A stretch of DNA of 64,000 bases. Origin: Candidatus Latescibacterota bacterium (GTDB taxonomy: Bacteria > Krumholzibacteriota > Krumholzibacteriia > WVZY01). Where the stretch lies: the NCBI GenBank assembly GCA_963791045.1, contig CAWBQK010000002.1, positions 64,001 to 128,000 of the forward strand, written 5' to 3'. This document shows positions 11,165-12,619 of the stretch, piece after piece; within the stretch, counting starts at the first letter, position 1; every line of letters begins with the position of its first letter. Position numbers and translations under genes: made by a program. The notes under the pieces were generated by a model, which had not been told where the DNA came from, searched no databases, and saw only the letters and a program-made list of their open reading frames with translations.

Positions 11165-11605
11165 ATGTTTGGTAAGGAAGCAGATAGCCTCGGCGGCGGC
11201 GGAGGCGAAGGCAACCTCAACTCGATTCTCGGCCCAGGGTGCAAGGTTAAGGGCACAATCGAAATCCAGGGTACAATTCGGATCGACGGAGATTTTGACG
11301 GCGATATCAAATGCCCCGATACTCTTATCATCGGCAAGTCGGGTGTTGTCAAAGCCAACGTGACGGTCAAAAATGCTGTCATCGGTGGCAAGCTGCTTGG
11401 AAATATCCAGGCGAGCAACAAAATTGAACTTCAGACCGGCTCGCATGTCGAAGGCGACATCCAGACCACACGTCTGGTAATCGATGAGGGTGTGTTCTTC
11501 GAGGGTAGCTGCAAGATGGGTCAGGCAGCGACAACGTCGTCGTCACAGCGCCCGTCCTTTGAAAAAGAAACCAAGAAAGAGCTCGAAAAAGAGGCCGTTA
11601 AATAG
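11165..11605 (+). CDS. Bactofilin (polymer-forming cytoskeletal protein, CcmA family)
   Basis: SD GAGGAGG; MFGK N-terminus; SILGPGCKVKG..IRIDG..GDI..LVIDEGVFFEGSCKM beta-helix pattern. Confidence 0.93.
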   Translation: MFGKEADSLGGGGGEGNLNSILGPGCKVKGTIEIQGTIRIDGDFDGDIKCPDTLIIGKSGVVKANVTVKNAVIGGKLLGNIQASNKIELQTGSHVEGDIQTTRLVIDEGVFFEGSCKMGQAATTSSSQRPSFEKETKKELEKEAVK

Positions 11606-11635
11606 CCTGAAGAGCAGGGATCGCCAGAAGAAAAC

Positions 11636-11673
11636 AAGGGGGCCGCGGTTTTGTATACCCGCAGCCCCCTTTT
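11636..11673 (+). terminator. Probable intrinsic terminator after bactofilin
   Basis: AAGGGGGCCGCGG-loop-CCGCAGCCCCCTT stem followed by a short T run. Confidence 0.6.
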
Positions 11674-11769
11674 GCTTGCCCGTGACGCACACGAGTCGAC
11701 CGCAACAGGGGCCGCATTCCGGCAGCAAATCTGCCACAATCCAGCCAGGGTTAAGTTCAGCGCACCAAA

Positions 11770-12000
11770 TTTTGTCCACAATTGGCCGCACGGGTGTTGA
11801 TAAAGTGCCCTGCTCTGTGGAAAACCCCTAATTATATGCGTAGCAAGGAGATGGGCGGTTGGGGGTGGTGGCCGTTTCGGGCTTTTCCACAAATCACCCC
11901 GGGGTATTCGGCTTATCGTATAGTTTCAAAGAAGATAAGGTGCGCCGTTTCAACCAGCGACGCACCTCCCTGAGATTACCCTTTGATATTTAATAAAATG
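11770..12000. other. DnaA-box cluster, candidate oriC or DnaA-binding locus
   Basis: TTGTCCACA 11772-11780, TGTTGATAA 11795-11803, TGTGGAAAA 11816-11824, TTTTCCACA 11883-11891; AT-rich tract 11982-11999. Confidence 0.6.
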
Positions 12001-12002
12001 AT

Positions 12003-12019
12003 GCCCTCGCACGGAGGAC
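12003..12019 (-). promoter_or_regulatory. Candidate bacterial SECIS for the second UGA, in the 3' UTR
   Basis: Hairpin GUCCUC-CGUGC-GAGGGC starting 13 nt after the UGA at 12033-12035; shares the CCGUG apex with the first hairpin. Confidence 0.6.
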
Positions 12020-12023
12020 GAAA

Positions 12024-12248
12024 TCAGACGCCTCAGGTTCCCCCGAACCCGATGGTGACCTCACCCTCATCAATAATCACGGGGACGTCACGCCGTCCAT
12101 CTGTGTAACGGAGCATCTCCTCGAGCGCTTGTGGATCCTGCTTGACATTCCTGTAGTCAACAACGACGTTTCGCGATGCGTAGTCCTCACGGGCCGCAAC
12201 AGTGTAGGGTCATGTGTCTTTGCCAAATATCATTACTCTGCTGGTCAT
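12024..12248 (-). CDS. Glutaredoxin-like selenoprotein with two Sec residues (UXX-star-type)
   Basis: Manual translation MTSRVMIFGKDT-U-PYTVAAREDYASRNVVVDYRNVKQDPQALEEMLRYTDGRRDVPVIIDEGEVTIGFGGT-U-GV*; TGA at 12210-12212 and 12033-12035; GAGG upstream; Grx-like VP motif. Confidence 0.88.
12177..12198 (-). promoter_or_regulatory. Candidate bacterial SECIS for the first UGA
   Basis: Imperfect hairpin UGCGGCCC-GUGA-GGACUACGCA starting 11 nt after the UGA. Confidence 0.6.
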
Positions 12249-12373
12249 TGTTCCACGCCTCGTTTTTTTGTGTTACCAGGTGCTTTAGTTCGGACTCGCC
12301 GCGGGTGGCGGCTCACGTTCTGGGTTGTTGAAGTTTCTGAAAATGACACCCCGCACTTCGCTTCGCTCGCCGA

Positions 12374-12502
12374 TGGGGCCCCCGGAGCGGCGCAGCGTTA
12401 GCGAGTACGCGCGGGCTTACCATCAGGCCACTGAAGCATCTGAGCTGAACACCCCGCACCTCGCTTCGCTCGGGGTGATCGATGACAGGACCCGCGGCCA
12501 AG
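12374..12502 (+). repeat. Dispersed structured intergenic repeat, copy 2 (preceded by a partial duplicate at 12331-12368)
   Basis: Matches 4231-4344 and the reverse complement of 38399-38510; internal hairpin ACCCCG...CGGGGT. Confidence 0.85.
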
Positions 12503-12619
12503 AAAACGGTTAAAGCGCCGCGGGTTTTTCCCGCCGGACTCGTCACAACGCAACGAGGATAGATGACGCGGCTGCAAATTGGCAAGCGAACAATCGAAAG
12601 CAACAATTTCGGCGAATGG

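Follow-up and report, generated by a model that had tools for sequence, protein, structure and literature searches.

The closest described systems are small selenoproteins with a glutaredoxin (Grx)-like fold. In the table of a 2026 review (PMC13188914), the family to which the gene described below belongs is named "Distant Grx-like protein 1" and is listed with a UxxT motif and two selenocysteine (Sec) residues. The review credits this family to Zhang and Gladyshev (2008) and the other UXX-star families to Haft and Tolstoy (2025), and its table gives one Sec for UXX-star family 2. The phrase "Distant Grx-like" is absent from the main text of Zhang and Gladyshev 2008 (PMC2398784), and the review's attribution may rest on the supplements. 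The terms UXX and Grx-like are absent from the BSepDB paper (PMC13326102), and a full-text literature search for "UXX-star" returned the review as its only match.

Several other proteins resemble this family in part. UXX-star families 2 and 3 and the HUGP/GUXX-star fusion have a Grx-like fold and a C-terminal Sec-x-x-stop in common with the gene described here. The clostridial cGrx1 (7c10/7c12), B. cereus BC3987 (3zij), and NrdH (1h75) have a similarly short thioredoxin/Grx fold of about 75 residues, and clostridial selenoprotein Grx likewise has Sec at the first position of the CxxC motif (PMC13188914). These proteins retain a U/CxxC or CxxS site and a C-terminal helix, whereas in the protein described here the second Cys is Thr16 and the helix is replaced by a short tail with a second Sec. 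The classical dithiol Grx of the CPYC type shares the Pfam domain, but its CxxC/CxxS site and its C-terminal helix at the glutathione site are missing here.

We analyzed a stretch of 64,000 nucleotides from a "Candidatus Latescibacterota" genome (here, the window). A first-pass annotation of it had claimed a hidden gene, missed by ORF calling, in which read-through of two TGA codons gives a coherent 74-residue thioredoxin-fold protein of the UXX-star pattern. This description holds wherever it could be checked. The mechanical ORF list has no ORF of at least 40 amino acids in the selenoprotein frame, which is why a plain ORF caller misses the gene, and the 74-residue protein is supported by the translation and by matches to Pfam and NCBIfam models. 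We conclude, with a probability of about 0.93, that 12024..12248 is an intact, expressed-type gene for a 74-residue Grx-fold selenoprotein with predicted Sec residues at positions 13 and 72. The gene belongs to an already curated and published selenoprotein family; it was correctly caught and is no new kind of thing.

The UXX-star gene, its family, and the Sec machinery

The coding sequence of this UXX-star family 1 selenoprotein occupies 12024..12248 on the minus strand, from an ATG start codon at 12248-12246 to a TGA stop codon at 12026-12024. With TGA read as Sec (U), the translation of 12248-12024 is MTSRVMIFGKDT-U-PYTVAAREDYASRNVVVDYRNVKQDPQALEEMLRYTDGRRDVPVIIDEGEVTIGFGGT-U-GV, after which the third TGA is the stop. 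UGA codon 13 (12210..12212, minus strand), read as Sec, lies in T-U-P-Y-T (residues 12 to 16), where the Grx CxxC motif has its first Cys, and provides the UxxT motif of the family. UGA codon 72 (12033..12035, minus strand), also read as Sec, lies in GFGGT-U-G-V-stop and provides the second Sec in the U-x-x-stop tail (U72-G-V-stop). On the same strand, 9 nt 5' of the ATG, GAGG at 12258..12261 is a candidate Shine-Dalgarno sequence; relatives have GGAG or AGGAG at this site.

The protein matches the NCBIfam model NF041114 ("UXX-star selenoprotein family 1") over profile positions 1 to 70 of 70 with 118.2 bits (cut-off, 72; E value, 1.3e-34), and a six-frame search of the genome with the same model gives 103.6 bits for the gene. 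The parent model NF041212 is also above its cut-off (95.9 versus 66 bits), in agreement with the UXX-star assignment of the first-pass annotation. The scores for UXX-star family 2 (NF041211), UXX-star family 3 (NF047338), and HUGP/GUXX-star (NF045501) are 50.9, 52.1, and 59.8 bits, far under the respective cut-offs of 100, 97, and 325 bits. Pfam Glutaredoxin (PF00462) is matched with 44.2 bits (cut-off, 22.9), and the curated Grx equivalogs all score far under their cut-offs (e.g., TIGR02181, 37 versus 90 bits). Like the gene described here, members of the NF041114 family have the UxxT motif, two Sec residues, and the C-terminal U-x-x-stop, and there is no substantive difference between them. 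Given the Pfam Glutaredoxin and NF041114 matches and the architecture common to its relatives, the reading frame is, as judged from sequence, far beyond chance.

An AlphaFold2 model based on 11 orthologues (mean pLDDT, 88.4) has the order beta-alpha-beta-alpha-beta-beta followed by a short tail, with no C-terminal helix of four or more residues; the protein ends four residues past the GG turn after the last strand. The top Foldseek matches of the model are B. cereus BC3987, clostridial cGrx1, and NrdH (TM score, about 0.75), and cGrx1 (7c10/7c12) is also the best sequence match among solved structures.

In the phylum, NF041114 is above the cut-off in 11 of 208 genomes, all belonging to the taxonomic family of the window. 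Orthologues exist in 10 of the 12 other genomes of this taxonomic family, with two in-frame TGA codons in every copy, and the orthologue described here is 61 to 70% identical to those of sister genera. A scan of genome contigs yielded 216 loci with relatives, of which the best 80 were taken; these derive from Acidobacteriota (Vicinamibacterales and Thermoanaerobaculia), Methylomirabilota, Fervidibacter, Deltaproteobacteria, and others. Together with the 11 Latescibacterota copies they make 91 gene copies, or 84 distinct genes after 7 duplicates were dropped, and the family counts given below refer to this set (best 80 of 216 plus 11). The architecture is common to all 91 copies.

Codon 13 is TGA in 61 and TGC or TGT (Cys) in 23 of the 84 distinct genes, while codon 72 is TGA in 82, TGC (Cys) in 1, and TCA (Ser) in 1; the corresponding residue states at positions 13/72 are U/U (61 genes), C/U (21 genes), C/C (1 gene), and C/S (1 gene). 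Apart from the single Ser, the homologues thus carry Cys or UGA at both positions, as had been anticipated in the first-pass annotation, and Cys/UGA exchange at both positions is the pairing that defines a selenoprotein. The two positions are asymmetric, residue 72 being almost always Sec and residue 13 being exchangeable. The fourth position of the motif is Thr in 84/84 genes. A stop codon follows exactly three codons after codon 72 in every one of the 84 genes, 80 have Gly or Ala as residue 73, and 82 have Val as residue 74 (encoded by GTC, GTG, GTT, and GTA). Because these two residues and the position of the stop are conserved, the frame after UGA72 is still coding. The final stop codon is TGA in 42 genes, TAG in 22, and TAA in 20. 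Across the family alignment, third codon positions vary and first and second positions are kept.

The genome (3.66 Mb in 21 contigs; completeness, 80.9%; contamination, 5.8%) has the complement of selA, selB, selC, and selD that the first-pass annotation had predicted. Matches to selA (460.5 bits), selB (373.7 bits), and selD (373 bits) are all above the cut-offs, and aragorn found one copy of tRNA-SeC(tca) at C18:158792-158891. A reassigned UGA code is ruled out, since tRNA-Sec is present and 3 of 10 Pfam-supported neighboring ORFs terminate in TGA, so that UGA is not reassigned genome-wide.

Further in-frame TGA codons were seen elsewhere in the genome. The selD gene, at C6:361456-362382, carries one in-frame TGA and is itself a selenoprotein form of SelD. 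A selB-like match with an in-frame TGA beside tRNA-Sec (C18:159440-160490) is lepA (EF4), whose frame breaks about 160 residues in; it was rejected as a selenoprotein gene and looks frameshifted. The dnaA match is split, with a TGA between the N-terminal part and the rest. The assembly may hold indel errors, as both lepA and the dnaA N terminus look frameshifted.

Hairpins downstream of the two UGA codons

Bacterial SECIS elements (E. coli fdhF, bSECISearch) are stem-loops that start about 11 nt after the UGA codon and have a conserved G (GU) in the apical loop. Almost all genes of the family have a G+C-rich hairpin directly past the stop codon, and its stem sequence varies by lineage. In the gene at 12024..12248, this predicted element (SECIS-2) is located in the 3' untranslated region (UTR) at 12003..12019 of the minus strand (GUCCUC-CGUGC-GAGGGC), 4 nt past the stop codon; it has a 6-bp stem, and its loop begins 22 nt after the U of UGA72. 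A scan for perfect stems of at least 6 bp with a loop start 17 to 27 nt after the U of UGA72 was positive in 75 of the 82 UGA72 genes, compared with 14% of 1,640 shuffled tails and a background of 13% of 888 other long-ORF ends in the family loci. The spacer between UGA72 and the stem is commonest at 10 to 11 nt, as the E. coli fdhF spacing rule would have it. In the two genes that lack Sec72, the stem at this site is just 4 to 5 bp long.

SECIS-2 was aligned, without gaps, from the 69 hairpins with odd-length loops, excluding 13 whose loops have 4 nt. All 69 aligned hairpins share a G as the second loop base, which is position 12012 in the window. Pairing in the 7-bp stem amounts to 92.1% of cells versus 50.5% in shuffles (0/500 reach 92.1%), a percentage that is inflated by the centering of the windows through the hairpin scan and for which the stem scan of shuffled tails and ORF ends serves as the control. 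Pairing falls to 33 to 49% when the 3' side is slid by one to three columns. The covariation score is 0.995 versus 0.207, double-sided changes occur at all seven pairs, and RNAalifold gives the same stem on this alignment. In its spacer of 10 to 11 nt, its invariant loop G (69/69), and its covariation, SECIS-2 conforms to what characterizes a bacterial SECIS. Placement in a 3' UTR has a precedent in engineered thioredoxin reductase (TrxR), where a bacterial SECIS in the 3' UTR functions for a C-terminal Sec, and bacterial production of mammalian TrxR requires such an element (PMC10778597).

The element proposed for UGA13 (SECIS-1) lies inside the coding region, at codons 18 to 23 (12180..12197, minus strand; GCG GCC CGU GAG GAC UAC). 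Codons 19 to 21 are GCC CGU GAG, and their third positions were compared between the 61 UGA13 genes and the 23 Cys13 genes (best 80 of 216 plus 11). Counted from the U of UGA13, C at +20 is present in 60/61 UGA13 genes and 9/23 Cys13 genes (Fisher P, 3e-9), U at +23 in 56/61 and 4/23 (P, 8e-11), and G at +26 in 58/61 and 11/23 (P, 3e-6); these tests ignore relatedness, and the UGA13 and Cys13 forms are both found within Acidobacteriota. The comparison shows an RNA-level constraint on GCC-CGU-GAG that is linked to UGA13. A loop C-G-U-G-A starting at +21 (proposed at 12191-12187, minus strand) and closed by C20-G26 and C19-G27 (12192/12186 and 12193/12185) would account for the three fixed sites. 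This loop start is the same as that of the 3' elements, among which CGUGA, CGUGC, and CGUGU loops occur. SECIS-1 has no more than two canonical closing pairs and a weak lower stem, and the minimum free energy (MFE) fold prefers another pairing; the exact stem geometry given here is therefore an inferred one. In single-sequence MFE folds of both SECIS regions, neither proposed hairpin was chosen and the z-scores were not significant against shuffles. An Rfam scan of 11700-12600 with E values up to 10 gave no SECIS family, the sole match being leuA-Halobacteria (E value, 3.7), a chance match. Comparison within the family supports two predicted SECIS elements for this gene of 225 nt, one inside the reading frame and the other past its stop codon.

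We propose that each UGA has a separate SelB-binding hairpin that brings about its recoding and would start about 10 to 13 nt downstream. UGA75 is only 4 nt from SECIS-2, which would be too close for delivery by SelB, so that this codon would terminate translation: by the time UGA75 entered the A site, the ribosome would be 9 nt nearer to SECIS-2 than at UGA72 and would already have melted it. Melting of SECIS-2 at that position is the simplest explanation of why UGA75 would act as the stop.

Genomic neighborhood

On the plus strand, mnmG, a beta-helix protein gene, parA, parB, an M23 peptidase gene, and a bactofilin gene lead up to the selenoprotein gene and end at 11605; on its other side are genes for MoxR, a DUF58 protein, a BatA/VWA protein, and Mfd. 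The selenoprotein gene is convergent with the bactofilin gene and divergent from the MoxR gene and therefore stands alone, without a same-strand neighbor, as the minus-strand unit described in the first-pass annotation. The DnaA-box cluster that it was said to abut is also there: of the 15 matches to TTATCCACA in the window (at most one mismatch), 4 lie in 11772-11891, just downstream. These DnaA-box-like 9-mers fall within 120 bp, and the window total of 15 compares with a shuffle average of 6.15. In most of nine aligned Latescibacterota relatives, the boxes TTGTGGAAAA, GTTTTCCACAG, TTTATCAACAC, and TGTGGAyAA (11740-11900) are kept downstream of the UXX-star gene. The dnaA gene is about 13.4 kb off, at C2:61366-62680. 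The origin of replication (oriC) is probably located between the bactofilin gene and the selenoprotein gene.

A second, 9-bp, G+C-rich hairpin lies at 11939..11965 on the minus strand, 60 to 85 nt past the stop codon, and is followed by UUAUCUUCUUU. It is missing from the list of the terminator scan and is kept in the relatives L018, L020, L023, and L024, with one compensatory change from A-U to G-C. This hairpin and its tail are likely to be the terminator of the gene.

The 5' intergenic region contains, at 12307-12546, two copies of a dispersed repeat of about 100 nt with 41-nt cores at 12329-12369 and 12432-12472; blastn gives 46 matches to it in all, over many contigs of the genome. In a public sequencing run (X3), a contig of a related strain connects 12306 with 12547 through 20 letters of another sequence, and the repeat block therefore looks like an insertion.

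Clustering of 2,118 stop-to-stop ORFs from the 84 loci (best 80 of 216 plus 11) revealed no partner gene common across lineages. The largest cluster consists mostly of spurious antisense ORFs of high-G+C DNA, and the other recurrent neighbors of UXX-star genes are lineage specific. An MFS_1 transporter gene is found in 27 of the 84 loci; of its 38 copies, 26 lie immediately upstream of the UXX-star gene and in the same orientation, an arrangement that the window does not have.

Alternative readings, proposed redox mechanism, and significance

Under one alternative, only UGA13 encodes Sec and UGA72 is a true stop, giving a 71-residue product with the hairpin after it as a transcription terminator. 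The hairpin at 12019-12003 is followed by the moderately T-rich AUCAUUUUAU and passes a lenient terminator filter as terminator-like, and the family uses UGA as a stop codon more often than UAG or UAA (42/84; best 80 of 216 plus 11). However, codons 73 and 74 are kept as amino acids through synonymous codons (80/84 and 82/84), the stop at +3 codons is present in 84/84, and codon 72 encodes Cys in one homologue and Ser in another. Furthermore, T-rich tails occur after just 5 of 82 hairpins, the G in the loop never varies, and the separate 9-bp hairpin with a U-rich tail lies 60 to 85 nt further on. We therefore consider termination at UGA72 very improbable. A decayed Grx pseudogene, or TGA codons that arose from assembly errors, can be almost dismissed. 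Indel errors seem to be present elsewhere (lepA and dnaA), in an assembly with 80.9% completeness and 5.8% contamination, but the two TGA codons are at the same positions in 10 independent assemblies of the same taxonomic family and in several phyla, and variation is seen at third codon positions, with the first two conserved. A contig from an independent run over 12184-12306, moreover, has no listed difference at 12210-12212. This contig (265 nt; run X3), in which TGA13 is intact, came from public sequencing data comprising 22 listed runs, none of which has half or more of the sampled words of the stretch; four runs were compared in detail. Run X4, an RNA library, gave one 156-nt contig over 12215-12362, which stops short of UGA13 and is no proof of transcription, and none of the four compared runs spans 11600-12154, the region that includes UGA72 and SECIS-2.

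The Gly-Gly turn of Grx lines the active-site groove. Sec72, two residues past this turn, would be well placed to pair with residue 13. Since the resolving Cys of CxxC is replaced by Thr16, residue 13 would have this tail Sec as its partner. Residues 13 and 72 would then alternate between a pair of selenols and a selenenylselenide, or a selenenylsulfide where residue 13 is Cys, and an inferred U13-U72 diselenide is plausible. Thioredoxin reductase would be the likeliest reductant: trxB is present (403.6 bits), an E. coli-type gshA was not found in this 81%-complete genome, and a gshB-like match is below the cut-off. The presence of trxB and the lack of a gshA match in an 81%-complete genome only hint at a protein that depends on thioredoxin reductase. 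By analogy, the C-terminal Gly-Cys-Sec-Gly arm of mammalian TrxR may be compared, as it likewise has a redox-active Sec a few residues from the C terminus; there is no sequence or fold kinship, and the partner in TrxR is an adjacent Cys, whereas here it would be a residue 59 positions away.

The main functional rival to the redox reading accepts the same gene and the same recoding but takes the two selenolates as a ligand pair for a metal or metalloid (Hg, As, Cu, or Se itself). Such a role is mentioned in the review (PMC13188914), ArsD and ArsR-type thioredoxin-fold proteins are among the weaker fold matches, and the sampled neighborhoods yielded no conserved gene for a redox partner. On the other hand, the closest relatives by sequence and by fold are redox-active proteins of the Grx/NrdH type, and Sec/Cys exchange, as at residue 13, is typical of redox centers. 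The sampled neighborhoods, moreover, contain no metal resistance genes but genes for an MFS transporter, ThyX, a LolA-like protein, a thioesterase, and an HhH-GPD protein, and the neighbors in the window are parAB, bactofilin, and MoxR genes. On balance, metal or metalloid binding seems rather unlikely to us.

Returning to the redox reading, a more specific and quite tentative proposal can be made, which we would not yet call probable. Because residue 72 is Sec in 82 of 84 genes and residue 13 is Sec in 61 and Cys in 23 (best 80 of 216 plus 11), Sec72, and not residue 13, may be the indispensable catalytic residue. The tail would fold into the glutathione groove, and the protein might act as a glutathione-independent, self-contained diselenide/selenenylsulfide redox shuttle. 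If this is true, its potential and substrate range would be unlike those of any characterized Grx, thioredoxin, or NrdH, and a 74-residue protein would hold new redox chemistry.

As a discovery, the gene matters little, since a curated NCBIfam equivalog model and the table of the 2026 review already exist. It shows that a plain ORF caller drops UXX-star genes such as 12024..12248, and it adds Latescibacterota to the hosts of UXX-star family 1. It also adds comparative detail, namely, two predicted SECIS elements in one 225-nt gene and the asymmetry of the two Sec positions, and a simple distance rule would separate the Sec UGA from the stop UGA nine bases later. With two Sec residues in only 74 residues, the protein would be a tractable model for the biochemistry of the family.
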